A DNA stretch of 64,000 nucleotides from an uncultured Candidatus Saccharibacteria bacterium (GCA_964505635.1 CAZDIP010000001.1:222412-286411), one strand, 5' to 3'. Positions 4,002-53,311 are shown, numbered from the stretch's first letter. Numbers and translations: made by a program. Notes: generated by a model not told the origin, from the sequence alone.

Positions 4002-5381
4002 TTATTCTGCCTGGCTCGCTGCCTGCATGACTGCTTGCGGGGAAACATCAAAAGTTTTATCCAAATTTTTAAAGGAAGTTTTATCCTGTTCAAAATATAA
4101 ATCCACCTGACCCGTAGGTCCATTTCTGTGTTTTTTTACGTGAATTTCCGCAATATTAGGACGGCGGCTGTCTTTGCCTTTATACATGTCCTCGCGGTAA
4201 ATAAACATAACAACATCTGCGTCCTGTTCAATAGAGCCAGACTCACGAAGGTCGGAAAGTTGAGGTACTTTATCGGGACGGTTTTCCACCCCGCGCGACA
4301 GCTGGGAAAGCGCCAAAACAGGAACATTTAATTCACGGGCCAAAATTTTCAAACTTCGAGAAATTTCAGAGACTTCCTGGACGCGGTTGTCAGTATTATG
4401 GCCTTCCATAAGCTGCAAATAATCAACTACAATTAGCCCCACATTATGCTCCGACTGCAGACGTCTGGCTTTGGTTCTTACTTCCATTATATTACTGCCG
4501 GCTGAGTCATCTATAAAAATTGGCGCTTCTGACAATTGCCCCATGGCTTCGCCGATTTTTTCAAAATCCTCATCGTTTAAATGGCCGGTACGTATTTTCC
4601 ACAAATTAACGTCGCTCTGTGAGGATAAAAGACGATCAACCAACTGGTCTTTGCTCATTTCCAAAGAAAAAATGCCAACCGGAATTTTTAAATTTACCCC
4701 AATATGGCGCATTATATCCAAAGCCAGGCTGGTTTTGCCCATGGAAGGACGCGCAGCCAAAACTATTAAATCGGATTTTTGCATGCCGCCAAGCAAGTTG
4801 TCCATATCAATATAGCCGGTTGACACGCCCCTCAAACTGCCCTTGTCTCTATGTAGTTCGTCTATCCTTTCAAAAGTGGAATGGAGGATTGTAGAAATTG
4901 AAATGAAATTCTGTTTTAAATGCTTTTGCGAAACACCAAATAATTTTTGTTCCGCTGCATCCAAAATATTTTCCACTTCACCCTCTTCCTTATAAGCCAG
5001 GCTGCTGATTTCCCCGGCGGTTTGTATAAGCCTTCTTAAACTGCCTTTCTTTCTTACAATAAAAGCGTAATGGACGACATTATTAGCCGAGGGCACCATA
5101 TTTACCAACTGGGTCAAATAGCTGCTGCCGCCAATAGTTTCCAAAAGTTTCTTTTCTTCAAGCAGGTTCGTAACGGTTAAAATGTCTATGGGGGTATTTT
5201 TTGAAAAAAGTTCAACTGCCGTTTCGTAAATCAGCTTATGCCTATGGTCATAAAAGTCATCTGCTGAGATTACGTCGGCAATTTTTATAATTGCGTCCCT
5301 ATCTAGCATAACGCAGCCCAAAACCGACATTTCTGCTTCGTTGTTTTGAGGAGGAACTCTCTGAACTGTAGAATTATCCAT
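4002..5381 (-). CDS. dnaB: Replicative DNA helicase DnaB
   Basis: It has an N-terminal DnaB domain, Walker A ARPSMGKTSLAL and the GLIVVDYLQLM and SQLSR motifs. The length is normal, so no intein. Confidence 0.9.
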   Translation of the reverse strand: MDNSTVQRVPPQNNEAEMSVLGCVMLDRDAIIKIADVISADDFYDHRHKLIYETAVELFSKNTPIDILTVTNLLEEKKLLETIGGSSYLTQLVNMVPSANNVVHYAFIVRKKGSLRRLIQTAGEISSLAYKEEGEVENILDAAEQKLFGVSQKHLKQNFISISTILHSTFERIDELHRDKGSLRGVSTGYIDMDNLLGGMQKSDLIVLAARPSMGKTSLALDIMRHIGVNLKIPVGIFSLEMSKDQLVDRLLSSQSDVNLWKIRTGHLNDEDFEKIGEAMGQLSEAPIFIDDSAGSNIMEVRTKARRLQSEHNVGLIVVDYLQLMEGHNTDNRVQEVSEISRSLKILARELNVPVLALSQLSRGVENRPDKVPQLSDLRESGSIEQDADVVMFIYREDMYKGKDSRRPNIAEIHVKKHRNGPTGQVDLYFEQDKTSFKNLDKTFDVSPQAVMQAASQAE

Positions 5382-5548
5382 AAAAAATAACTAGAATATT
5401 TATAGTTAATTATAACTAAAGTTAAACATTTTTAAAACAGTAAAAAAGCCCTTGTTTAAGGGCTAAACTGCATAAGTTGTGCAGAAATAGGGGACAAATA
5501 AACTCATAAAATGCTAAAATAAGAAAAATTAACACTTTATTTAATTTA

Positions 5549-5863
5549 ATGTCCTCCGAAATAAAAAACGGCGAACCAGCCGAAAAACCAGAAGCCCCGT
5601 CAATTACTTGGACAAAAACCGTTTTGGATAGGTGTGAAAGGCTAATTAATGACCCGACTGAATATAAACCAAAAACATTTTATGACCCAGTTATGCAGAC
5701 TATTGAAAATGAGTTAATACCGAGGCTAAAAATTGCGCCTTACCAAAATAAAGTTATTGTAAGAAATTTGCTTTTGGAATTTCTAAGTAAATACGAAGCA
5801 AGTTTGCCGGCAAGTGTTATTGACAAATTATCTCAGCTATCTACTGAGACAATAGAAAAGTAA
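5549..5863 (+). CDS. Hypothetical small protein
   Basis: A 104-aa ORF divergent from dnaB with no recognisable motifs. Confidence 0.35.
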   Translation: MSSEIKNGEPAEKPEAPSITWTKTVLDRCERLINDPTEYKPKTFYDPVMQTIENELIPRLKIAPYQNKVIVRNLLLEFLSKYEASLPASVIDKLSQLSTETIEK

Positions 5864-5873
5864 CAAGTAAATC

Positions 5874-7214
5874 TTACTTTTTACTTGCCTTCTGTCCTTG
5901 CGGGGTATCTTTGACTTCGTACCCCAAAGACTCGATCTTTAACCTTAATTCATCTGATTTTTGGAAGTCTTTAGCATCCCTGGCCGCCTGGCGCTCAGCT
6001 AAAAGTTTTTCAACTTTTTCTGGTAAGGGTTCTTGGACTTTTTCGTTAAAAAAATTGAGGCCAAAAACTTGATCAGGGCTAACGTTTCCATCATGCAGTT
6101 TAAAACTTAATCCAAGAGCCTTAGGTATGTTCAAATTATCATTTAACGCATCAGTAACCTCAGCGTAAACTTTATCTTCCTCATAATTATCTGTCCGTTG
6201 GGTAATCAGACGATCGGTTTTTTTAAAAGTATCTATGAGGAAGTTCATCTGCGTTTGATAGTGTGCGCCACAGAGTGTGGATCTTAATACATTTCCAGCA
6301 ATTGGATTAAATGCTTCCAGATCTTTTAAAGTATAAAAATTTCCCGCACTCTTTGCCATTTTTCTGCCATCTACCAACAAATGTTCGGAATGAAACCAAT
6401 GATGCACAAAATTACCTTTACCTAGCAAGGCTTGGCTTTGTGCTATTTCATTGGTGTGGTGGGGGAATATTAAATCTACGCCGCCTGTGTGAATGTCTGT
6501 CGGTTCGCCATTAAATGCGACTTTGTTTATAACCGAGCATTCAATATGCCAGCCCGGACGGCCTTTGCCCAAAGTTTCGTGATCCCAATATATATTTCCA
6601 TCAGTCTCTGGGTTATATGCTTTCCATAAAGCAAAATCTGACAAATTGTCTTTTTCATACTCGTCTACTGCCACACGAGCGCCAACTTTTTTGCCTTCTA
6701 TAAATTTCTCTCCAACCAGTTGGCCGTAGTCGCCAAAATCTTTTTGGTATTTTTCAATACTAAAATAAGTACTGCCGTCTTCGGCTTTATATGCATAACC
6801 CTTGTTAATTAGCTCAACAATAAACTCCTGGATTTCCGGCATCTTTTCCGTCACGCGAACAAACTCTATTTCATCTACTAACACGTTAACTTCGCGCAGG
6901 TCGCTAATAAAAGCCAAACGGTATTCTTCTGTAAAATCAAACAATTCTTTTACCCCGGCGTTTTCCCCATATTTCTCAATAGTCCCTTTTATAGTTTTGT
7001 CGTCAATATCCGTTAAATTCATAACCCAGCGTGGCTGATAGCTGTCATATTTAAGCGTACGGTAGAGCAAATCTGCCAAAATAAAACTGCGCAAATTACC
7101 AATATGGGCATAATTATATATAGTTGGACCGCAAGTATACATATTAAAATTGCGGTTTTGGGGCTTTTGAATTTCTTCGATTTCCTTTGTTAAAGTGTTG
7201 TAGAGTTTTAGCAT
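5874..7214 (-). CDS. cysS: Cysteinyl-tRNA synthetase
   Basis: It has the HIGN (HIGH-type) and KMAKS motifs, a zinc-binding Cys/His pattern and the C-terminal anticodon-binding region. Confidence 0.9.
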   Translation of the reverse strand: MLKLYNTLTKEIEEIQKPQNRNFNMYTCGPTIYNYAHIGNLRSFILADLLYRTLKYDSYQPRWVMNLTDIDDKTIKGTIEKYGENAGVKELFDFTEEYRLAFISDLREVNVLVDEIEFVRVTEKMPEIQEFIVELINKGYAYKAEDGSTYFSIEKYQKDFGDYGQLVGEKFIEGKKVGARVAVDEYEKDNLSDFALWKAYNPETDGNIYWDHETLGKGRPGWHIECSVINKVAFNGEPTDIHTGGVDLIFPHHTNEIAQSQALLGKGNFVHHWFHSEHLLVDGRKMAKSAGNFYTLKDLEAFNPIAGNVLRSTLCGAHYQTQMNFLIDTFKKTDRLITQRTDNYEEDKVYAEVTDALNDNLNIPKALGLSFKLHDGNVSPDQVFGLNFFNEKVQEPLPEKVEKLLAERQAARDAKDFQKSDELRLKIESLGYEVKDTPQGQKASKK

Positions 7215-13738: not shown

Positions 13739-14000
13739 AAAACCAAAAGACCCCGGGATTTTAACTGTAAGTCTACAGTAAAAACCCTGGGGTCTTGGAT
13801 ATAAGACCAAGACGTTTCCGTCCCAGTTCACTTAAGTGGCTCTAGAACACTTAAGTCTTTTTATGCTTTTGTCTCAAACTCCTTAGATTGGTTGTCTAAG
13901 TAGTAACGTTTGAAGAACTGAAAAAATTATAACATAAGCCAAAATAGCTGACAAGCTAAGATTTCCACAACTGGTAAAAAATATTGATTTATAAAAACTA

Positions 14001-14329: not shown

Positions 14330-14362
14330 ACTCGCAATGCTGTACTCGCGAGTCTTTTTTTT
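14329..14362. terminator. Rho-independent terminator shared with the convergent dnaE
   Basis: The stem gactcgc/gcgagtc is followed by a T8 tract. Confidence 0.6.
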
Positions 14363-17300
14363 ATTCCACGTCAACTTTTAAAACTCCGGAAACTTCTTTA
14401 AGCTTGCTGATAAGCTCGGATGCGACATTTACCCGGCTTTGGGCTTTAATTTTTTTAGCATTAGGCCCGCTACCCAAAAGCAGATACACCTGAGCCTGGC
14501 CCGGAAAAGCCGTTAAAATTTGTTTTATTTCATTAAGCGCCGAGGAGTTGCTTAAATTCTGCATATGCAAAACCAAGTGCTTATTTTTTTCAACCTCTTT
14601 TAAAGCTACACTGTAAAGCTCGTCTGAGGGCAGGACCTTAATTTCTTCCGCAATTAACTTAAATTCTTCGTCTTTGTCGGAAAGCCGGCCTCTGACCTGC
14701 ACAATTTGGTCATTTGCCAAAAACGGCAAGGCCGCTTCCATCACTTTAGGAAAAACTAAAACTTCCACGCTGCCGGTGCCGTCTTCCAAGGTAAAAAAAG
14801 CCATGGGGTCATTTTTTTTAGTCAAAGTTTTTTTAAGACGGGAAATTATTCCGCCCATTACCACATTCTGGCCCAGCATATCCAAATGTAAATTTTTAAC
14901 TAAAATTAGGCCGTTCAGCACTTTACGATAATTGTCCAAAGGGTGGGCGGAAACATACATGCCTAAATGCTCTTTCTCCCAAACTAATTTTTCTTCTTTA
15001 CCTGCAGGGGGGAATGATTTTAAGGTTAATTTGCCGAAATGCATGTTTTTTCCAAACAAAGAATTTTGACCCGAATTTTCCGCTTTAAAATGTTCGCGTA
15101 CGAATTCCAAAACCTCATCGGTATTGTTTAGCAAGCTGCCGCGTTCGCCGAAGGCGTCCAAAGCTCCGGCTTTTACAAGCGCCTCCCAGGATTTTTTGTT
15201 AAAGTTTTTAACATGGCATTTTAAAAGAAAATCCTGAAGGGAAAGGAAAACGGGTGAACCATAGGCATTACTATGACGATAACTAAAATCCGCATCTGCA
15301 GATTTATTATTGTTATTGTCATTACTAACCTTGCCCTGCCTGGCCTCCATAATTCTTTGTATCACGTCGCTGCCTAAATTCTTTATGGCATTAAGTCCAA
15401 AACGAATGGTTTTTTCATCCACTACCGTAAAATCTCCCATAGATTCCCGAACATCCGGCGGTAAAACCGAAATACCCAATGCCTTACATTCTTCCACAGC
15501 TTCGTAAATTTTATCTTCATCGCCGCTTTCGGCGGTCATTAACGCCGCCATAAATTCTACCGGGTAATTTGCTTTCATGTAAGCCGTCTGGTAGGATACG
15601 ACCGAATAAGAAGCCGAGTGGGCTTTATTAAAACCATAGGCCGCGAAAGGTTCAATCCAGGTCCAAATCTGCTCGGCCTTTTGGTGGCTCCAGTTGCTGG
15701 TTTTCTGACAACCTTGAATAAATTTAATTTTTTGCTTAGCCATTTCTTCAGGAATTTTTTTACCCACCGCTTTGCGGAATTTATCCACCTCTTCCCAGGA
15801 ATACCCGGCCAAATCATGGGCAATGGTTAGCAAATCGTCCTGGTAAACCAAAATTCCATATGTCCTATGCAGTATCTTTTCAAATGCCGGATCCAGATAG
15901 TTAATCAACTTTGAATTATGCTTGCGTTTAATATAATCTTCTATAAACTGCATGGGCCCGGGACGGTACAAAGCTATCATGGCCATAATGTCAAAAACTG
16001 AGCTGGGTTTTAGTTCTTTTAAATACCTGGTCATTCCCGAAGATCCCATTTGAAACACCCCAAAAGTAAGTCCGTCGGACAAAAGTTTAAAGGTTTTTTG
16101 GTCAGGGTGGGGGAGATTATAAATATCAATTTTAATACCGTGTCTTTTTTCAACCAGATTAACTGCCGCTTCCAGAATAGAAAGATTGCGAATCCCTAGC
16201 AAATCCAGCTTTACAACTCCAATGGCTTTGGAGCTGGCATTAACATCCAAAGCATACATATCATACTGGGTAATAACCCTCTCGCCATCGGGTTCTTTTT
16301 GCAATGGCATGTAGTCGGTTAGTTGGGTAGGGGTAATAACAATGCCGGCCGCGTGAACGGAAGCATGGCGCGCGCAGCCCTCCAATTTTTTTGCAATCGT
16401 CAAAATCCGCCTGGTTTCCGGATCCTGATCGTAAATGGCTTTTAACTCGGGGGTTTTTTCAAGCGCAATGTCTAGCGTCATATGAAAGCCCTGTTTGCCG
16501 ATGGGAATCATTTTGGCAATCTGGTCACACTTGGAATAAGGCACGCCGAGGGCCCGGCCAACGTCCCTAACGGCAGCGCGAGCCATCATGGTTCCAAAGG
16601 TAATAATTTGCGCGACTTTGTCCGAGCCGTACTTTTGGGTAATATAAGCAATGGCTTCGTCGCGGCGGTTATCGGCAATATCAAGGTCAATATCGGGCGG
16701 AGTCGGCCGATGCATGGTTAAAAATCTTTCAAATGGCAGCTCGTAGTAAAGAGGGTCCACATTAGTAATACCTAAAATCCTGCCGACAATGCTGCCGGCA
16801 GCGCTGCCCCTGGTATTGGTAATGGCGCCGATATTGTGGGCGCCTTTCACCGCATCGGCCACCATTAAAAAATAAGTGTCGAATCCCTTTTTACAGATAA
16901 TATTTAACTCATAATTTATGCGCTCAATAATTTCTTCGGGCACCTGTCCGTTTTGTCCATAAATCTCTTTTGCACTTTCATGCACAATTTGATTCAAATA
17001 GGTTTGTGAATCTAGGCCGGAAGGAATTTCCACTTTTGGGAAGTAACGCTGGTCAATCTGGATTTCCAGGTCGCACATATCGGCTATTTTTTGCGTATTA
17101 TGCAAAGCTTCCGGGACGTCGTAAAATAGTTCGTGCATTTTTTCAGGCGACTTTAAAGACAGATCATAACCCCGCATATCCAAACGGTCTTGCTCTTCCA
17201 CAGTGCGTCCCGTGCCAATACATACCATCACATCCTGAGCTTCACTGTCTTCCGGGTATATGTAGTGGCAATCGGCGGTGGCGACCAAGTTTAAACTTCT

Positions 17301-17912
17301 GGATTTGGCCAACGAAATAAGGCGGTTGTTTAAAAGAGTTTCATTTGGATCTTCATGCCTGCTGTTGCGTTGAATTTCAATAAAAAATCTTCCCGGCCCG
17401 AATATACTTAAATACTTTTCCAGCGCCTGGTTCGCTTCATGGTCGGATTTCATGATAGCTTTTGCAATTTCACCCCGCTGGCAACCTGAAAGGCAGATTA
17501 AACCTTCGGAGTGGCTGGCTAGAAGATTTAAATCTATTCTTGGCTTATAGTAAAACCCTTCTAAATGAGCAGTTGTCGTAAGGTTTATTAAATTCCGGTA
17601 ACCTACTTGATTCTGAGCCAACAATGTTAAATGATAGTAAGCCGAATCAATTTTTGCCTCTTTTTCCAAAAGAGAGCGAGGAGCAACGTATGCCTCAAGG
17701 CCAATAATCGGCTTAATGCCGGCTTCTTTGCATTTATTAAAAAATTCAATGGTGCCGTACATAACACCGTGATCAGTAATAGCCAAAGCTTCCATATTAA
17801 GCTCTTTGACACGTTCAACCAAAGGGTCAATTTTAGAAAGACCATCTAATAAAGAATAGTGTGAATGGCAATGTAAGTGAGTAAACTTCATAGGCAAGCT
17901 TAATATTACCAA
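14361..17912 (-). CDS. dnaE: DNA polymerase III alpha subunit
   Basis: It has an N-terminal PHP domain (HLHCHSHYSLLDG), the pol IIIa core and an OB fold. A short low-complexity insert (NDNNNNK) sits near aa 845. The true start may be Met8 (MKFTHLH). Confidence 0.9.
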   Translation of the reverse strand: MVILSLPMKFTHLHCHSHYSLLDGLSKIDPLVERVKELNMEALAITDHGVMYGTIEFFNKCKEAGIKPIIGLEAYVAPRSLLEKEAKIDSAYYHLTLLAQNQVGYRNLINLTTTAHLEGFYYKPRIDLNLLASHSEGLICLSGCQRGEIAKAIMKSDHEANQALEKYLSIFGPGRFFIEIQRNSRHEDPNETLLNNRLISLAKSRSLNLVATADCHYIYPEDSEAQDVMVCIGTGRTVEEQDRLDMRGYDLSLKSPEKMHELFYDVPEALHNTQKIADMCDLEIQIDQRYFPKVEIPSGLDSQTYLNQIVHESAKEIYGQNGQVPEEIIERINYELNIICKKGFDTYFLMVADAVKGAHNIGAITNTRGSAAGSIVGRILGITNVDPLYYELPFERFLTMHRPTPPDIDLDIADNRRDEAIAYITQKYGSDKVAQIITFGTMMARAAVRDVGRALGVPYSKCDQIAKMIPIGKQGFHMTLDIALEKTPELKAIYDQDPETRRILTIAKKLEGCARHASVHAAGIVITPTQLTDYMPLQKEPDGERVITQYDMYALDVNASSKAIGVVKLDLLGIRNLSILEAAVNLVEKRHGIKIDIYNLPHPDQKTFKLLSDGLTFGVFQMGSSGMTRYLKELKPSSVFDIMAMIALYRPGPMQFIEDYIKRKHNSKLINYLDPAFEKILHRTYGILVYQDDLLTIAHDLAGYSWEEVDKFRKAVGKKIPEEMAKQKIKFIQGCQKTSNWSHQKAEQIWTWIEPFAAYGFNKAHSASYSVVSYQTAYMKANYPVEFMAALMTAESGDEDKIYEAVEECKALGISVLPPDVRESMGDFTVVDEKTIRFGLNAIKNLGSDVIQRIMEARQGKVSNDNNNNKSADADFSYRHSNAYGSPVFLSLQDFLLKCHVKNFNKKSWEALVKAGALDAFGERGSLLNNTDEVLEFVREHFKAENSGQNSLFGKNMHFGKLTLKSFPPAGKEEKLVWEKEHLGMYVSAHPLDNYRKVLNGLILVKNLHLDMLGQNVVMGGIISRLKKTLTKKNDPMAFFTLEDGTGSVEVLVFPKVMEAALPFLANDQIVQVRGRLSDKDEEFKLIAEEIKVLPSDELYSVALKEVEKNKHLVLHMQNLSNSSALNEIKQILTAFPGQAQVYLLLGSGPNAKKIKAQSRVNVASELISKLKEVSGVLKVDVE

Positions 17913-26315: not shown

Positions 26316-26391
26316 GCCGATGTAGCTCAGCTGGTAGAGCATCTCCATGGTAAGGAGAAGGTCTCCGGTTCAATCCCGGACATCGGCTCCA
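26316..26391 (+). tRNA. tRNA-Thr (GGU), CCA encoded
   Basis: A canonical cloverleaf: acceptor GCCGATG/CATCGGC, anticodon loop ATGGTAA, T-loop TTCAATC. An 8-bp long-range inverted repeat flanks it (cccgccaa 26301 / ttggcggg 26397). Confidence 0.9.
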
Positions 26392-27038: not shown

Positions 27039-27123
27039 TGGTGGGCGGTGCAGGACTCGAACCTGCGAAGCCGTAAGGCACCTGATTTACAGTCAGGTGT
27101 AATTGCCGCTATACGAACCGCCC
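27039..27123 (-). tRNA. tRNA-Tyr (GUA), type II with long variable arm, CCA encoded
   Basis: The reverse complement gives acceptor GGGCGGT/ACCGCCC, anticodon loop CTGTAAA, a 14-nt variable arm and T-loop TTCGAGT. Confidence 0.85.
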
Positions 27124-30566: not shown

Positions 30567-30756
30567 GCCAGCTTAGCTCATCTGGTAGAGCAACGGTTTT
30601 ACCTGCCCGCCAGTCGCCGAGTGCCGATGTAGCTCAGTTGGTAGAGCAACGGTTTTGTAAACCGTAGGTCGTCGGTTCAAACCCGACCATCGGCTCCAGG
30701 CGATCGGCAGGCGGGTAAACCGTAGGTGGCCGGTTCGAGTCCGGCAGCTGGCTCCA
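30567..30756 (+). tRNA. Split/intron-containing tRNA-Thr-like gene (outer), reconstructed anticodon UGU, CCA encoded
   Basis: Acceptor GCCAGCT (30567-73) / AGCTGGC (30746-52); D-arm 30576-91; anticodon stem ACGGT (30593-97) / ACCGT (30719-23); T-arm GCCGG-TTCGAGT-CCGGC (30729-45). A 114-nt insertion at 30601-30714 lies between anticodon positions 34 and 35. Joining the two parts restores the loop TTT|GTAA. Confidence 0.6.
30623..30698 (+). tRNA. tRNA-Thr (UGU), intact, nested inside the outer tRNA's insertion, CCA encoded
   Basis: Acceptor GCCGATG/CATCGGC, D-arm GCTCAGTTGGTAGAGC, anticodon loop TTTGTAA, T-arm GTCGG-TTCAAAC-CCGAC. Confidence 0.9.
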
Positions 30757-31241: not shown

Positions 31242-31315
31242 GGGGGGTTCGTATAACGGTAGTACAATGGTCTCCAAAACCATTTGCGAGGGTTCGACTC
31301 CTTCACCCCCTGCCA
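31242..31315 (+). tRNA. tRNA-Trp (CCA), CCA encoded
   Basis: Acceptor GGGGGGT/ACCCCCT (1G-72U), 3-bp D-stem, anticodon stem ATGGT/ACCAT with loop CTCCAAA, T-arm GAGGG-TTCGACT-CCTTC. Confidence 0.85.
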
Positions 31316-48006: not shown

Positions 48007-48381
48007 ATGAACAGGGAAAAAGAAACAGGCTTTGTTAACGATTGTGAATTTTTTTTTGAATTTCCTAACGCGCAAATTAAAGCAAGCGCGGAAGACTTCC
48101 TTAAAAATCAGCTTAAACAAAGTATAGAAACTTTAGCTCATGGGGTAGATAATCACCAAGATATAATATTACATGCTTCAAACGTGGTCATACAACAAGA
48201 CCCAAAAAGGCCTGAGGGTTTAAAAATTGCTTTTAGAGTTAAACCAAACCACCTTAATCCTAAACAGCTCGAAAGCACATTGCTTGATATGCTTCATTCC
48301 CAAGGCTTTGAACTAAACAAGCTTAGCGGAACGGAAGAAACCTACGAAGTTGTTAACGGTGAAATCACAAACCTAAATTAG
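48007..48381 (+). CDS. Hypothetical protein
   Basis: A 124-aa ORF with no motifs. Confidence 0.35.
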   Translation: MNREKETGFVNDCEFFFEFPNAQIKASAEDFLKNQLKQSIETLAHGVDNHQDIILHASNVVIQQDPKRPEGLKIAFRVKPNHLNPKQLESTLLDMLHSQGFELNKLSGTEETYEVVNGEITNLN

Positions 48382-49305
48382 TAAAGAACTGATAAAATTT
48401 CTGTTTCCATTCAAAAAATCTAAAATAGGCATTTCTTTTTTACCCTCCAAGTGGAGGGTTTTTATTTTTAGTGCCGTGTTTTTTCCGCACACCACAAAAC
48501 CGTCTTCCATAACACCGCCGCTTGTTTGTATAAGCGAGGACTGGTGGGGATTGTACTGAATGGACATATCGGTAATTTTTAAAGTTTTACCCTGCCAGGT
48601 AGTCCAAACTCCGGGCCAGGGGTAAAAAGCGCGAAACTGATTATAAATTTCCTGGGCGGTTTTTTGCCAGTTTATTCTGCCGTCAGCCTTGGCAATAATT
48701 TTTGTGTAAGTCGCGGCTCCTTCGTCCTGGGGCAGGGGAGTAATTTTACCTGAAGTGTAATCTTCAATAACTTTGTTAATAACGTTTGCGGATTTGTAGG
48801 CAAGTTTTTCAGAAAGCGTTATAAAATTATCATCAGCTTCTATAGGCAGGGTTTCCGAAAAAAGCCAGGGTCCGTGGTCAACTTTTTCGTCCAAAATAAA
48901 TATGGAGGTGCCGGTTTCCATATCTCCATTTAATAAAGCGTACTGAATAGGGGAGGGACCGCGATACTTTGGCAAAACCGAAAAATGTACATTAATGGTT
49001 TTATATTTTGGCAAGTTAATTATTTCGAGAGGCAAAATTTGGCCGTAAGAAACCACCACAAAAATATCCGCCCCAAAATTTAGCAATTCATTGTAAAACT
49101 GCTTATTACCCTTAACCTTCTCCGGTTTTAATATTTTTAACTTTATTTCATTGGCTAAAACGCTGACAGGGGACTCCTGAATTTCCTGCTTCCTGCCAAC
49201 TTTTCCATCCGGCTGCGTAACCACTGCCAAAATTTCGTGCTGTTTTGCAAGCGCTTCTAGTATAGGCAACGCTACATTAGACGTACCAAAAAATACTATT
49301 TTCAT
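48373..49305 (-). CDS. fmt: Methionyl-tRNA formyltransferase
   Basis: It has the formyltransferase N-domain (HFSVLPKYRGPSPIQ, SLLP motif) and a C-terminal domain. Confidence 0.9.
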   Translation of the reverse strand: MKIVFFGTSNVALPILEALAKQHEILAVVTQPDGKVGRKQEIQESPVSVLANEIKLKILKPEKVKGNKQFYNELLNFGADIFVVVSYGQILPLEIINLPKYKTINVHFSVLPKYRGPSPIQYALLNGDMETGTSIFILDEKVDHGPWLFSETLPIEADDNFITLSEKLAYKSANVINKVIEDYTSGKITPLPQDEGAATYTKIIAKADGRINWQKTAQEIYNQFRAFYPWPGVWTTWQGKTLKITDMSIQYNPHQSSLIQTSGGVMEDGFVVCGKNTALKIKTLHLEGKKEMPILDFLNGNRNFISSLLI

Positions 49306-49528
49306 ATGAATCGCTGATTACTCACTGATAGCAAAGCGGATGTTACGATAACTTAACACAACCCTGTCATTCCGGAATTTTTATATTGTTATTAAAAATG
49401 TCCGAAATCTATTTAATACTCGGTGCTGGATCCCGGACATTTTTTGCTACGATAAATCTCAATTCAAAAAATTCCGATATACCAGAGTGTTTATTCATTA
49501 CTCTCTAACTATAACAAAAATCCTGATA

Positions 49529-49557
49529 TTGACAAAACCGCTTATTTATAATAAAAT
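49529..49557 (+). promoter_or_regulatory. Candidate promoter for the 53-aa ORF
   Basis: TTGACA, a 17-nt spacer, then TAAAAT. It lies about 90 nt upstream of the RBS. Confidence 0.4.
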
Positions 49558-49647
49558 ATTGCGACCTATAGAAAAAAATTGGTGTATGATTGGGGTTTGC
49601 TGGTGGTGATTCCTAGAGGACCTTGAACAAAAAAACAAGGAGATTTT

Positions 49648-49809
49648 ATGTTTAACTTCACTAGGACCGGTTGGTACCGACGGGAGGCTTGGCTGATAAA
49701 GAAAATGGATCGACTGTCATTAGAAGGATGGGTATTTATATCTTTCCTGTGGACTGACGGTCAAATCGAGGCCTACTTCCGGCGCAAAGCAACCAAAAAA
49801 CCCAAGTAA
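49648..49809 (+). CDS. Small hypothetical protein (53 aa) with own RBS and terminator
   Basis: An AAGGAGA site lies 7 nt upstream of the ATG. The product is MFNFTRTGWYRREAWLIKKMDRLSLEGWVFISFLWTDGQIEAYFRRKATKKPK. A perfect hairpin gcgggagcatatgctcccgc plus T8 follows at 49817-49847. Confidence 0.55.
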   Translation: MFNFTRTGWYRREAWLIKKMDRLSLEGWVFISFLWTDGQIEAYFRRKATKKPK

Positions 49810-49844
49810 CCCCATCGCGGGAGCATATGCTCCCGCTTCTTTTT

Positions 49845-50399
49845 TTATTTCACAATCTTTCTTAAAATTTCCGCCTCAATCCTGCAGTCGGTAAGACCGT
49901 CGTGGCGGCTTTGGGACTTAATTTTAAACTTCCGCATTAAATCTTCCAAACTAAATCCGGTAAATTTTTTATTATTTTTAAGCTGGTTTTTTAAAGCCAA
50001 ATGCGCATAAAAAAACGCCCAAAGGTTAAAGTAGTGGTAATCAAACTGCCATTTTAAATTATGTTTATAGTAGGCGGCCCGTAAAAAATCCATATCCACG
50101 GGCCCGCCGTAATAGCTTAAAATTACCCGCTGGGGATTAAACTGTTTGTTAAATTCTTTTAGTACATCTTTAAGCGGGGGAGCGGCATTTAGCCATTCTT
50201 TTTTTACGCCATTTATCCGCATAGACTCCCTGTCTCTTAACTGCCATTTAAGAGGTTTTATGTAAGCATTAAAAACCGCTTTTTCGTTTAAAGTCTTTTT
50301 GTCTAAAAGCACGGCCGAAAGCTGAATTATTTCCTGCCGAAAAGAGTCCAGGCCTGTGGTTTCCAGATCTACCAGTAATAAATCTTTATAAAAATTCAT
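49845..50399 (-). CDS. DEDDh 3'-5' exonuclease (DnaQ/RNase T-like), catalytic residues intact
   Basis: It has Exo I DLETTG, Exo II GGPVDMDFL and Exo III HDGLTD. Confidence 0.7.
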   Translation of the reverse strand: MNFYKDLLLVDLETTGLDSFRQEIIQLSAVLLDKKTLNEKAVFNAYIKPLKWQLRDRESMRINGVKKEWLNAAPPLKDVLKEFNKQFNPQRVILSYYGGPVDMDFLRAAYYKHNLKWQFDYHYFNLWAFFYAHLALKNQLKNNKKFTGFSLEDLMRKFKIKSQSRHDGLTDCRIEAEILRKIVK

Positions 50400-50400
50400 A

Positions 50401-50937
50401 TCAAGCTTCTTTAATTATTTTTCTAAATATTTCGGCCTCAAGGCGCACTTTTTCCATTGCATCGTTTGGATGTTTTTGCTTTAAATTAAAATGGTCTAAA
50501 AATGTATTAAAGGTAGGCATTTTTTTTAAACCGTAATTTAATGTGTAAATATACCCCAAGGTCCATAGCTCTATAACATGGGAACCATAGTCAAACGGCA
50601 CCAAGGCTTTTTTAAATGCGGCCTTTAAAAACAAGATATTGGCCACATTATGGGTTGCCAATAAAAAATTACTGCCCAATTTATTGTGAAATTGTTTTAC
50701 TACATCGTAGACTTTTGCGCTTTTTTTTAAAACATTATATTCAATTCCAAGCAATTTGGAATGCTGATTTATAACGGCATCCAAATAACTTACTCGCACA
50801 AACGAATTGAAGTTGGCCTTTTCCAAAAGATTGTCTTTATCAAGCAGAACTGCTGAAAGCTGGATAACCGAATCCTTATCGGTGTCCTGTCCGGTTGTGG
50901 TAACTTCAAAAAATAATAGATCTTTAATAAATTTCAT
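50401..50937 (-). CDS. DEDDh exonuclease paralog with degenerate active site (likely inactive)
   Basis: It is parallel to the neighbouring gene, but Exo I reads FFEVTTTG (D to E, E to T) and Exo II reads HNVANILFL (terminal D lost). The start is taken at MKFIKDLL. Confidence 0.55.
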   Translation of the reverse strand: MKFIKDLLFFEVTTTGQDTDKDSVIQLSAVLLDKDNLLEKANFNSFVRVSYLDAVINQHSKLLGIEYNVLKKSAKVYDVVKQFHNKLGSNFLLATHNVANILFLKAAFKKALVPFDYGSHVIELWTLGYIYTLNYGLKKMPTFNTFLDHFNLKQKHPNDAMEKVRLEAEIFRKIIKEA

Positions 50938-51015
50938 AAGCAGTAATCTCAAATATACAAATCTTTCCAAATATACAAATTTAAATGCATTGCCTGATTT
51001 GTATATTTGCGAACA

Positions 51016-51495
51016 CTACTTTATCAACTCTTCACCCTGAGTATATTTTTTTATCAAATCAATAATTAAAATTCCGTTAATATGGTCAATTTCATGCTGC
51101 GCCACTCTGGAAACCCAGCCGTCGTCGGTTATGGTTATTTTTTCCCCTAAGTTGTTCTGCCCTTCAATAGTTACTTTTTTTGGCCTTTTAACCATGCCGT
51201 ATACTCCGGGAATAGAAAGGCAGCCTTCTTCGATTTCTACCCTTTTGAAACTTTTGGATTTAATTTTAGGGTTGTAAAGCGCAAAAGTAGGGATTCCCGA
51301 TTTTTCCAGGTTAATAATTACCAGTTTGACTGGTTTTCCAACCTGTGGCGCTGCCAAGCCAATACCATCTGAGTTACGCACCGTGTCTATCATGTCTTTG
51401 GTTAATTTCTTGATTTCCGAAGACAAAGGAAAAACCACAGGCTCTGTTTTAGCCCGTAGCACCGGATCCGGGTATTTTTTAATTGGTAAAGTCAT
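51016..51495 (-). CDS. def: Peptide deformylase
   Basis: It has the GIGLAAPQ, EGCLS and HEIDH metal-binding motifs. Confidence 0.9.
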   Translation of the reverse strand: MTLPIKKYPDPVLRAKTEPVVFPLSSEIKKLTKDMIDTVRNSDGIGLAAPQVGKPVKLVIINLEKSGIPTFALYNPKIKSKSFKRVEIEEGCLSIPGVYGMVKRPKKVTIEGQNNLGEKITITDDGWVSRVAQHEIDHINGILIIDLIKKYTQGEELIK

Positions 51496-51509
51496 AACAC
51501 AAAAGATTA

Positions 51510-51932
51510 TTATACTATTTGCGGATCAGACGGTTCATCCTCAACTTCAACACCGCCTAAAAAAGTAATATCTCCTTCTTGTATTTGATCTGCCGCCCCT
51601 GAATTCCAACCAGGCGGATTTTCAAAATTCGATTCTTTTTTTTCTTTCTCATTAATTTTTTTTTCCATATTATTTTTCTTAATTAAATAAGCAAAAAGTT
51701 TACCTGGGGTTTGGGCATTTTTATTTTCCAAAATTTCTCCCATCAATTTTCTTAAAAAATTATGATCGTAAGTTACTGCCATTTTTAAATAAAAACCAAA
51801 ATGTTTTTTGTCATTCAACTTAACGCTAAGCTCTTCGGCCAGTAAATGAGCAGGGGAGTGGAGATATTTATTTGCCTTAGATTTTTTTTGTACTCTTTCC
51901 GAGGCTTTGGCAATTTTACCTAGAGATTCCAT
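51510..51932 (-). CDS. Hypothetical protein
   Basis: A 140-aa ORF that is Lys/Glu-rich, with no motifs. Confidence 0.35.
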   Translation of the reverse strand: MESLGKIAKASERVQKKSKANKYLHSPAHLLAEELSVKLNDKKHFGFYLKMAVTYDHNFLRKLMGEILENKNAQTPGKLFAYLIKKNNMEKKINEKEKKESNFENPPGWNSGAADQIQEGDITFLGGVEVEDEPSDPQIV

Positions 51933-52000: not shown

Positions 52001-53311
52001 ATGACCACATTTGAAGTTGCCGAACTTAAAATTACCGCGATAACAAAAGCAGAATTTCTTACAACAGTTTTGCGGCGAATTAAAAATAACCAAAAAACCT
52101 GGGTTACCACTTTATACTCTGAATTTTTATATGCATCTATAAAAGACAAAAAAAATCTTGAGATGCTAAATAAAGCAGATATAGCCCTGCCTGACGGCAT
52201 TGGTATTTTTTGGGCACATAAATTTTTAAGCTTGTCCTTAAGTGCAAAGTCACGTTACGGCAAAATTTTACAAGGCCTGTGGCAGGTATTGGTTACTCTA
52301 TATAAATTTTCGCTTCCCGAAGCTTTTGGAGGAACCAAGGGAGAAATTAGCGGATCAAGAGAACGGATCCCCGGCTCAGAACTTATTTGGGATTTGGCAA
52401 GACTTGCGCAAGAAAATAACCTTTCAATTTATCTATTAGGGGGATTTGGCAATACGCCGAAGCTTGCGGCAAATACTCTAATATCTAAATATCCCGATAT
52501 TCAAATTGCCGGATATTCTACTAAAAACCCTGATGATAAAGATATTATTGCAGATCTAAAATCGGCAAATCCCGACATTCTCCTTGTTGCCTACGGCCCT
52601 ATAAGGCAAGAGGCCTGGATATATGCAAATCTAAACAATTTGCCCGCTAAACTGGTTATTGGCCTTGGAGGCACTTTTGATTATTTGGCCAAAAAACGCC
52701 TAAAAGCGGCCAAATTTATAAGCCATGCGGGCTTTGAATGGCTATTTAGATTAATTACCCAGCCTTACAGGCTGAAACGGATTTTCCAGGCCACCTTAGG
52801 TTTAATAGCACTCTTAGCGGAATACAAACTTTTTAACAGCTTGCCCTACAGGCAAAACGCGGTAGCTGTAATTATTAACAAGCAACGTAAAATTTTCGTC
52901 GGACTAAGGAATGAAAAAAATAAACAAGACGACAAACAACCTCACTGGCAATTGCCGCAGGGAGGAATTGAGGAAGGCGAGGATTTCATGCAGGCGGCAA
53001 AAAGAGAAGCTTTGGAGGAAACCGGCATAACTTCTTTAAAATTTATTTTTAAATCAGCCAGTCAAAATTCTTACCTCTGGCCTTTAGGCCATAGCAAAAA
53101 ATATAAAGGCCAGAATCAGCATATTTTTTACTTTTTGTTTACCGGACAGGAAACGGAAGTTAATTTGCATTACCACGACTCGCATGAATTTATGAGTTAT
53201 AAGTGGATCGGACCGGATAAACTATACGAGACTATCCATGACTACAGAAAAAACTTGATAAAAATAGTATTAAACGATTTGAAGGAAATGTCACAAAAAG
53301 CTATAATATAA
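52001..53311 (+). CDS. Fusion protein: WecG/TagA-family (GT26) glycosyltransferase + C-terminal Nudix hydrolase
   Basis: The N-terminal ~250 aa carry the GT26 hallmarks (LPDGIGIFWA, AYGPIRQE). The C-terminal ~150 aa carry a Nudix box GGIEEGEDFMQAAKREALEETGI. Confidence 0.6.
   Translation: MTTFEVAELKITAITKAEFLTTVLRRIKNNQKTWVTTLYSEFLYASIKDKKNLEMLNKADIALPDGIGIFWAHKFLSLSLSAKSRYGKILQGLWQVLVTLYKFSLPEAFGGTKGEISGSRERIPGSELIWDLARLAQENNLSIYLLGGFGNTPKLAANTLISKYPDIQIAGYSTKNPDDKDIIADLKSANPDILLVAYGPIRQEAWIYANLNNLPAKLVIGLGGTFDYLAKKRLKAAKFISHAGFEWLFRLITQPYRLKRIFQATLGLIALLAEYKLFNSLPYRQNAVAVIINKQRKIFVGLRNEKNKQDDKQPHWQLPQGGIEEGEDFMQAAKREALEETGITSLKFIFKSASQNSYLWPLGHSKKYKGQNQHIFYFLFTGQETEVNLHYHDSHEFMSYKWIGPDKLYETIHDYRKNLIKIVLNDLKEMSQKAII

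Follow-up and report, generated by a model that had tools for sequence, protein, structure and literature searches.

In Escherichia coli and many other bacteria, the genes for peptide deformylase (def) and methionyl-tRNA formyltransferase (fmt) lie next to each other and form the canonical def-fmt operon. RNase T acts as a dimer in which substrate binding and catalysis are divided between the subunits, and E. coli uses RNase T-type trimming where tRNA genes encode CCA. Catalytically dead paralogues that partner an active enzyme have been described under the name of "prozymes" for AdoMetDC and deoxyhypusine synthase of trypanosomatids (PMC5201418, PMC3663545). Here we analyse a stretch of 64,000 nucleotides from an uncultured Candidatus Saccharibacteria bacterium (GCA_964505635.1 CAZDIP010000001.1:222412-286411; hereafter the window, with positions counted from its first letter), in which def and fmt are separated by two paralogous DnaQ-like genes, the intact DEDDh exonuclease gene exo1 and its degenerate paralogue exo2, together with a convergent open reading frame (ORF) of 53 amino acids.

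The comparison with related genomes indicates that the dead paralogue is fixed in the def-fmt operon of Doudnabacteria, a lineage of the candidate phyla radiation (CPR) in which we also place this ultra-small bacterium, and this, along with a short predicted member of the DUF4177 family, is what the present work adds. In the literature searched, we came across no account of this exonuclease pair in Doudnabacteria, nor of an operon of the type def-exonuclease-fmt.

Gene order between def and fmt

According to the ORF list and Pfam matches, positions 48373-51932 of the minus strand hold five consecutive genes in the order up140, def, exo2, exo1 and fmt. The genes def (51016-51495; Pep_deformylase, 1e-47) and fmt (48373-49305; Formyl_trans_N, 1.6e-36, and Formyl_trans_C, 1.6e-25) leave an interval of 1,710 bp between them. 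This interval contains exo2 (50401-50937, minus strand, 178 aa), exo1 (49845-50399, minus strand, 184 aa) with its ATG 1 nt from the exo2 stop codon, and the 53-aa ORF (49648-49809, plus strand), convergent with exo1. An earlier reading of this DNA, made from the sequence alone (hereafter the sequence-only reading), had described def and fmt as split by about 1.7 kb containing an exonuclease pair and a convergent 53-aa ORF, and its coordinates are borne out. The start of exo2 was placed at the ATG at 50937 (MKFIKD…, 178 aa), and not at the TTG at 50970 given by the mechanical ORF list, because nearly all of the 120 listed homologues begin MKFIKD… and have a length of 178 aa.

The comparison covered one genome per species, 80 loci in total (numbered with the prefix L), almost all labelled Doudnabacteria or Patescibacteria and each visible over 8.5 kb; gene order was read by tblastn of the window proteins together with ORF analysis. 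The order up140-def-exo2-exo1-fmt is found in about 67 of the 80 loci, with fmt following exo1 in 64, and the identity of def across loci ranges from 46 to 82%. A split def-fmt pair is thus what one normally meets in Doudnabacteria, as part of a clade-wide housekeeping synteny. As in the canonical operon, both genes, their order and their strand are kept, and they evidently still form one cluster; unlike the canonical operon, one or two DnaQ-like genes stand between them throughout the clade.

Eight loci (L065, L066, L068, L069, L070, L074, L075 and L076) have a single exo2-like gene between def and fmt, with gaps of 0-1 nt. This gene is inactive in each of them: the Asp residues of Exo II and Exo III are changed to Asn in 8/8, and E→Q and H→R occur additionally in four. 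In a neighbour-joining tree, the genes of these single-copy loci form the sister group of the exo2 clade. Because these single-copy loci hold an inactive exo2-like gene, the constant feature of the locus, judged from the sequences, is a dead DnaQ-fold gene between def and fmt, joined in most lineages by an active paralogue. In two outgroup Patescibacteria (L078 and L080), an intact DEDDh gene occurs in other contexts.

Catalytic residues and selection

The exo1 protein matches PF00929 (RNase_T) with 80.9 bits (cut-off 24) over profile positions 3-164 of 164. Alignment to the PolC-type exonuclease 2p1j shows all five catalytic residues in place, namely D11 and E13 of Exo I, D102 of Exo II, and H166 and D171 of Exo III, and these residues are invariant in a 17-sequence family alignment as well as in every exo1-position gene of the 63 paired loci. 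We therefore predict exo1 to be an active DEDDh 3'-5' exonuclease.

The exo2 protein still matches PF00929 (34.4 bits, cut-off 24), and a profile-profile alignment of the exo1 and exo2 families with hhalign gives a probability of 99.9% and an E-value of 4.8e-33 over 179 columns. In this alignment exo2 has a different residue at each of the five catalytic positions (D11→E11, E13→T13, D102→N100, H166→N158 and D171→K163), and an independent alignment of the exo2 profile to 2p1j agrees on the loss of these residues. Among the 63 loci, the full catalytic set was never found in an exo2-position gene. The replacements vary by subclade (ETN·NK, QEN·HK, DEK·AR and others), the picture expected of relaxed constraint at a putatively dead active site. 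The tandem active/degenerate DEDDh pair of the sequence-only reading is thus upheld, and the alignment of both exonucleases that it had proposed as a check confirms the motif loss in exo2. That reading had put the loss at two substitutions; the loss stands, and its extent was understated.

The exo2 gene is nonetheless under strong purifying selection. Its homologues number 377, of which the 120 listed are 61-81% identical in local alignments, mostly about 70-80%, and nearly all 178 aa long. The proportion of non-synonymous differences (pN) is 0.14-0.20, as against 0.72-0.98 for synonymous differences (pS), synonymous sites being saturated. Mean pairwise identity is 59% for exo2 and 50% for exo1. 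Of 59 genomes compared, 57 have an exo2 that is better conserved than their exo1, and in 52 of the 59 it is better conserved than fmt; the median identity of exo2 to the window copy (67%) is close to that of def (69%). Because it combines purifying selection with a conservation higher than that of exo1, exo2 is best regarded as a functional pseudo-enzyme and not as a decaying gene, in keeping with the pseudo-enzyme proposed from the sequence alone. The two closest relatives of exo2, in L083 and L084, lie on sequences that end about 100 nt past exo2 in a repeat and are therefore silent on linkage to exo1.

Relation to known nucleases

Both proteins share the PF00929 fold with DnaQ, the polymerase III ε subunit and the PolC-type proofreading domains. 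The closest solved relatives of exo1 are the PolC-type exonuclease of Thermotoga maritima (2p1j, 2.4e-14) and E. coli ε (1.6e-10); RNase T (4e-5) and oligoribonuclease (Orn, 3.5e-4) are weak matches of its profile in the PDB. The best NCBIfam matches of both exonucleases are PolC, dnaQ and "3'-5' exonuclease" models, all far below the curated cut-offs. For the DNA polymerase III ε models, exo1 scores 49.7 against a cut-off of 71.5 (TIGR00573) and 35.6 against 222.7 (TIGR01406), and exo2 reaches 28.2 bits against the 71.5 of TIGR00573; the Orn model NF003765 gives 18.3 bits against a cut-off of 106, and no RNase T model is among the NCBIfam matches listed. Exact-sequence look-ups of the window exo1, exo2 and 53-aa protein returned no record.

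With DnaQ, ε and the PolC-type domains exo1 shares the complete D-E-D-H-D set, whereas exo2 has none of these catalytic residues. Unlike DnaQ and ε, both are bare domains of 178-184 aa that end at the last helix of the exonuclease domain (E. coli ε, chain 5fku_D, has 243 aa), so that the C-terminal extension binding the PHP domain of the polymerase III α subunit is missing in each, and the def-fmt setting is not that of dnaQ. RNase T and oligoribonuclease are homodimeric exoribonucleases of the same superfamily and suggest how an active and an inactive chain could be combined in a heterodimer; sequence similarity to them is weak and falls short of a family-level match. The likeness to prozymes is that a duplicated copy has lost catalysis, is kept under selection and stands beside an active paralogue. 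Unlike prozymes, exo2 belongs to an unrelated enzyme family and exo2-like genes also occur without an adjacent exo1.

A proposed role for exo2

The explanation that we favour, with moderate confidence, is that the region is the def-fmt housekeeping operon of Doudnabacteria, that exo2 is a non-catalytic subunit and the partner of exo1 where exo1 is present, and that the 53-aa gene is a separate passenger. An ancestral DnaQ/ε-like DEDDh gene would have lodged between def and fmt and then been duplicated. The exo1 copy would have stayed an active 3'-5' exonuclease, and the exo2 copy would have lost its entire metal-binding and catalytic centre while being retained, under strong purifying selection, as a non-catalytic protein. 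By analogy, exo2 is most likely a non-catalytic partner or a 3'-end-binding subunit: it could serve in substrate binding or as a scaffold, its DnaQ fold holding a nucleic-acid 3' end or a partner protein, and where exo1 is present the two might form a heteromer with one active site. The 53-aa gene would be a separate transcription unit, one of several alternative passengers in the slot between exo1 and fmt, and where a passenger is present fmt would probably be transcribed from its own promoter and not by read-through from exo1. The partnership of exo1 and exo2, their substrate and the pattern of transcription are what we infer here.

Several observations weigh against this explanation. The eight single-copy lineages keep an inactive exo2-like gene without an adjacent exo1, so that in them either exo2 is independent of exo1 or exo1 lies elsewhere in the genome. 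In a close relative, L082, a PDDEXK_3 fragment and two DUF378 genes precede exo1 in place of exo2. The spacing between exo2 and exo1 is at most 10 nt in 17 of 63 loci and is often 60-130 nt, reaching 477 nt; translational coupling is therefore not general. Neither exonuclease reaches the cut-off of any named NCBIfam family, and the sequence does not tell a DNA from an RNA substrate. An AlphaFold2 (AF2) model of the exo2 monomer, built from a shallow 22-sequence alignment, has a predicted local distance difference test score (pLDDT) of 49 and is unusable. Finally, membership of an operon in a reduced genome need not mean a function shared with def and fmt.

The chief alternative, an appreciable if unlikely possibility, is that exo2 does not need exo1 and serves Def and Fmt as a non-catalytic factor: it might, for example, bind a single-stranded RNA 3' end, such as that of initiator tRNA, or form a bridge between the two enzymes, exo1 being an unrelated member of the operon. 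The eight lineages in which def, the exo2-like gene and fmt follow one another with gaps of 0-1 nt and no exo1 between them speak for such independence, as do the position of their genes beside the exo2 clade in the tree and the fact that it is exo2, and not exo1, that always adjoins def and equals it in conservation. A circumstantial point is that tRNA 3' ends are plausibly handled by exonucleases in this organism: the window has four tRNA genes (26316-26391, 27039-27123, 30623-30698 and 31242-31315), each of which encodes the 3'-CCA, as in the E. coli situation served by RNase T, and because of this tRNA 3' maturation here presumably proceeds by trimming and not by CCA addition. However, no sequence feature ties exo2 to tRNA, the ribosome, Def or Fmt, its nearest relatives are DNA proofreading exonucleases of the DnaQ/PolC type and not RNase T or Orn, and gene adjacency in streamlined genomes is weak evidence for a common function.

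That exo2 is an unrecognised accessory factor of the formyl-methionine cycle or of translation initiation, binding a 3' end such as that of initiator tRNA or coupling Def to Fmt, seems to us rather improbable. Such a role would explain the place of exo2 between def and fmt in every lineage, its def-like conservation and its persistence without exo1 at the locus.

Inactive paralogues that strong selection maintains are often a sign of regulation or scaffolding that has gone unrecognised. In the present case, such a paralogue lies within the highly conserved def-fmt pair of bacteria throughout a CPR lineage and evolves more slowly than the active exo1, in minimal genomes in which keeping it is costly. 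If exo2 partners exo1, the pair would be a natural heteromeric DEDDh nuclease with one active site; if it works with Def and Fmt, it would be a new component of the biology of N-terminal formylation and initiation. Apart from the mechanism of exo2, the locus displays ordinary gene-neighbourhood variation.

The 53-aa gene

The sequence-only reading had credited the 53-aa ORF with a promoter, a ribosome-binding site and a terminator, and all three were found. The promoter, TTGACA-17-TAAAAT at 49529-49557 (plus strand), matches the consensus at 11 of 12 positions; the 64-kb window has four sites with at least 11/12 matches, compared with 1.6±1.1 expected. A Shine-Dalgarno sequence, AAGGAGA, lies at 49637-49643 (plus strand), its GGAG ending 5 nt before the ATG, and GGAG is also present in L082. 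The intrinsic terminator at 49817-49846 (plus strand) consists of a G+C-rich stem of 8-9 bp, the hairpin at 49817-49836 reading GCGGGAGC-ATAT-GCTCCCGC, followed by TTCTTTTTTT. This hairpin is 8 nt from the exo1 stop codon and has no T-run on the minus strand; it is therefore not a canonical terminator for exo1. Taken as a whole, the 4.2-kb region is not clearly enriched in such signals, with 16 promoter-like sites against 12.4±4.0 and 8 terminator-like sites against 4.3±2.7.

An exhaustive profile search found the closest homologue, P0122 (57 aa, 60% identity), on the Joint Genome Institute (JGI) contig L082, where its gene runs convergently towards the 3' end of an exo1 sharing 77% identity with that of the window. 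Between the window and L082, pN is 0.216 and pS 0.77 for the small gene, and the values for the adjacent exo1 are similar (0.143 and 0.744); the protein is thus conserved in relatives, and not drifting as the sequence-only reading had allowed for. Although synonymous sites are saturated, a 31-nt promoter block (TTGACAAAACCGCTTATTTATAATAAAATAT) is 100% identical between the two sequences, and the terminator stem is kept in L082 with a different loop, so that promoter and terminator are both conserved there. Less closely related homologues are encoded at the equivalent site and in the same direction in L019 (also 53 aa), L032 and L011. A family hidden Markov model (HMM) run on all ORFs of 92 sequences detected the small gene in five of them (window, L082, L019, L011 and L032), and in 5/5 occurrences it abuts the 3' end of exo1 convergently.

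Assignment to a family rests on several concordant results. Pfam DUF4177 (PF13783; gathering score 25) gives no hit for the window protein or P0122, and 12.7-18.9 bits for the homologues of L019, L032 and L011. When a DUF4177-type profile was made from sequences other than the window protein, it gave this protein 27.1 bits (E 1.6e-10 with Z=1), a score reached by 0 of 1000 shuffles, none of which exceeded 7.3; the profile members P0123, P0131 and P0132 pass the Pfam cut-off and had been retrieved by a profile that included the window protein. The confident AF2 model (pLDDT 91.9) has a β-α-β-β topology (E2-6, H13-25, E29-36 and E39-47), a prediction that agrees with the DUF4177 fold, described as one helix and three β-strands (PMC11322243). 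With DUF4177 proteins such as PEG 446 of Clostridium tyrobutyricum and YjzH of B. subtilis it has in common the signature …L(N/D)xLGxEGWExV…(F/L)KR; it differs from them in being shorter than the 65-position Pfam model. DUF4177 is without an established function, with one bacteriocin-like claim (PMC11322243) and one report as an RNA-binding candidate (bioRxiv 10.1101/2025.03.21.644579).

Other searches were less informative. Foldseek with the model against the PDB gave nothing with an E-value below 0.1, and a PDB profile search with the 53-aa protein gave no match. A word-index homologue search found nothing for the protein, and only P0121 when a 4-sequence alignment was used. The one match from the metagenome scan, L081 (24 residues, 54% identity), was rejected as a chance match, since it lies on an unrelated contig and outside any ORF similar to the 53-aa protein. 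The presence of an RNA gene or riboswitch in the intergenic region was likewise rejected, Rfam giving none at the gathering score and relaxed matches far below the threshold. Together, the sequence and the structural model indicate that the 53-aa ORF is a genuine protein gene with its own promoter, Shine-Dalgarno sequence and terminator, encoding a predicted soluble DUF4177-like βαββ protein. The case shows that genuine micro-genes missed by annotation can be recognised correctly by their strong expression signals.

The slot between exo1 and fmt

The distance between exo1 and fmt is at most 197 nt in 54 of 64 loci and 324-772 nt in the other ten. The slot corresponds to 49306-49844 in the window and to about 5100-5900 in L001, L003, L008, L009, L011, L017, L019, L032, L034 and L039. 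Among these ten long slots, three contain DUF4177-like genes and four (L001, L008, L009 and L017) encode small membrane-like proteins; L039 has a 112-aa protein, and L003 and L034 have same-strand genes of 158-245 aa. A 295-aa gene (5264-6151) occupies the slot of L090. Because unrelated genes occupy the slot in different species, the exo1-fmt junction is, in the sequences compared, a hot spot of small-gene turnover.

A promoter starting TTGACAAAAC recurs in the slot before different cargo in L009, L019, L032, L039, L082 and the window. Between L032 and L039, the 5' end of fmt and the promoter (TTGACAAAACTCTCTC…GATATTTTT) are 87% identical and the cargo is unrelated. L082 carries, between exo1 and the small gene, an inserted gene for a 254-aa protein (528-1292), bordered on both sides by direct repeats of 45 nt that correspond to the exo1 3' end (461-505 and 1295-1339, 84% identity), which suggests insertion by recombination or duplication at the exo1 3' end. 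With lower probability, the junction could even be specialised for exchange, passengers being swapped behind a resident promoter through recombination at the exo1 3' end. In L008 (4538-4979) and L009 (4538-5014), the spacer between exo2 and exo1 measures 442-477 nt, against a usual 0 to about 130 nt, and may represent a second insertion site.

In a minority of Doudnabacteria genomes, then, the operon differs from the canonical one by an extra, oppositely transcribed passenger that probably uncouples fmt from the upstream promoter. Because the small gene converges on exo1, no T-run is present on the minus strand and a promoter-like site faces fmt, fmt is probably transcribed at least partly on its own in this genome. 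That site, TTGTCA-16-TATAGT (TG-extended; 49508-49535, minus strand), was identified by its match to the consensus. Its -35 hexamer and that of the small-gene promoter on the plus strand overlap back-to-back in ATTGACAA (49529-49535).

These data bear on the proposal of the sequence-only reading that the exonuclease pair and the convergent small gene constitute a regulatory, toxin-antidote-like or defence module, which we consider very improbable. The strong and conserved expression signals of the small gene, its constant convergent position at the 3' end of exo1, and the matches of exo1 (3.8e-23) and exo2 (1.4e-09) to a PADLOC model would be in line with it. The PADLOC model, however, is a generic CRISPR-associated DEDDh model and the matches reflect the generic domain only, and Pfam, NCBIfam and PADLOC gave no toxin, antitoxin or defence-family match for the 53-aa protein. 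The pair is found in about 67 of 80 loci, in a fixed housekeeping synteny, and is without the small gene in >90% of them, so that the co-occurrence looked for in other genomes is confined to few sequences, and elsewhere the slot holds unrelated cargo, some of it behind a promoter starting with the same TTGACAAAAC. As regards type II toxin-antitoxin systems, the small gene and the exonucleases do not make up a co-directional, co-transcribed unit, the exonucleases being clade-wide and syntenic and the small gene, with its own promoter, convergent and present in 5 of 92 sequences. The module thus lacks support because of the convergent orientation, which sets the small gene outside the exo1 operon, its separate promoter, its soluble fold and the want of any family match beyond generic DEDDh; the small gene is better seen as a lineage-specific passenger in a variable slot than as part of a module.

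That exo2 is a decaying relic, or the 53-aa ORF a chance ORF in a spacer, is hardly credible: the loss of every catalytic residue in the one and the absence of a Pfam match, of a word-index homologue and of more than a chance metagenome match for the other would fit, but the data on selection and conservation (for exo2, 377 homologues, a length held at 178 aa, pN far below saturated pS and conservation beyond that of exo1; for the ORF, a 60% homologue, pN of 0.22 against pS of 0.77, a conserved promoter and terminator, 27 bits and a pLDDT of 91.9) refute both a pseudogene and a spurious ORF.

Neighbouring genes

The first gene of the cluster, up140 (51510-51932, minus strand), is a 140-aa ORF and a conserved neighbour of def: 78 of the 80 loci have a homologue immediately 5' of that gene (around positions 3000-3500 in L001-L079). 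It has a conserved core of ~92 aa (…LHSPxHLLADEL…HFGFYLKMA…KTPGKLFAYLIKK), to which the window copy adds a 45-aa acidic C-terminal tail specific to this genome. Profile searches gave no Pfam and no PDB match for up140; its sole match is a weak one in NCBIfam, to an SCCmec single-stranded DNA-binding protein (E 0.0056).

At the other end of the cluster, a 124-aa candidate ORF (48007-48381, plus strand) directly after yceG overlaps the 3' end of fmt by 9 nt, convergently. It has no family match, and a weak match (27%) was found in one related locus, L027; where the window has this ORF, the fmt-yceG spacer of L090 is 125 nt long and has no gene. Divergent from the up140-def cluster, positions 52001-53311 (plus strand) encode a WecG/TagA-type glycosyltransferase fused to a NUDIX hydrolase domain, a fusion also present in the relatives L083, L085, L090 and L065.

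Farther away, the window encodes a DnaE of 1183 aa, the polymerase III α subunit with its PHP domain (14361-17912, minus strand). Near the 3' side of this gene, at 13954 (minus strand) and 14001 (plus strand), two sites on opposite strands are located 50 nt apart: a perfect 12/12 sigma-70 consensus promoter, TTGACA-17-TATAAT, and one with 11/12 matches.

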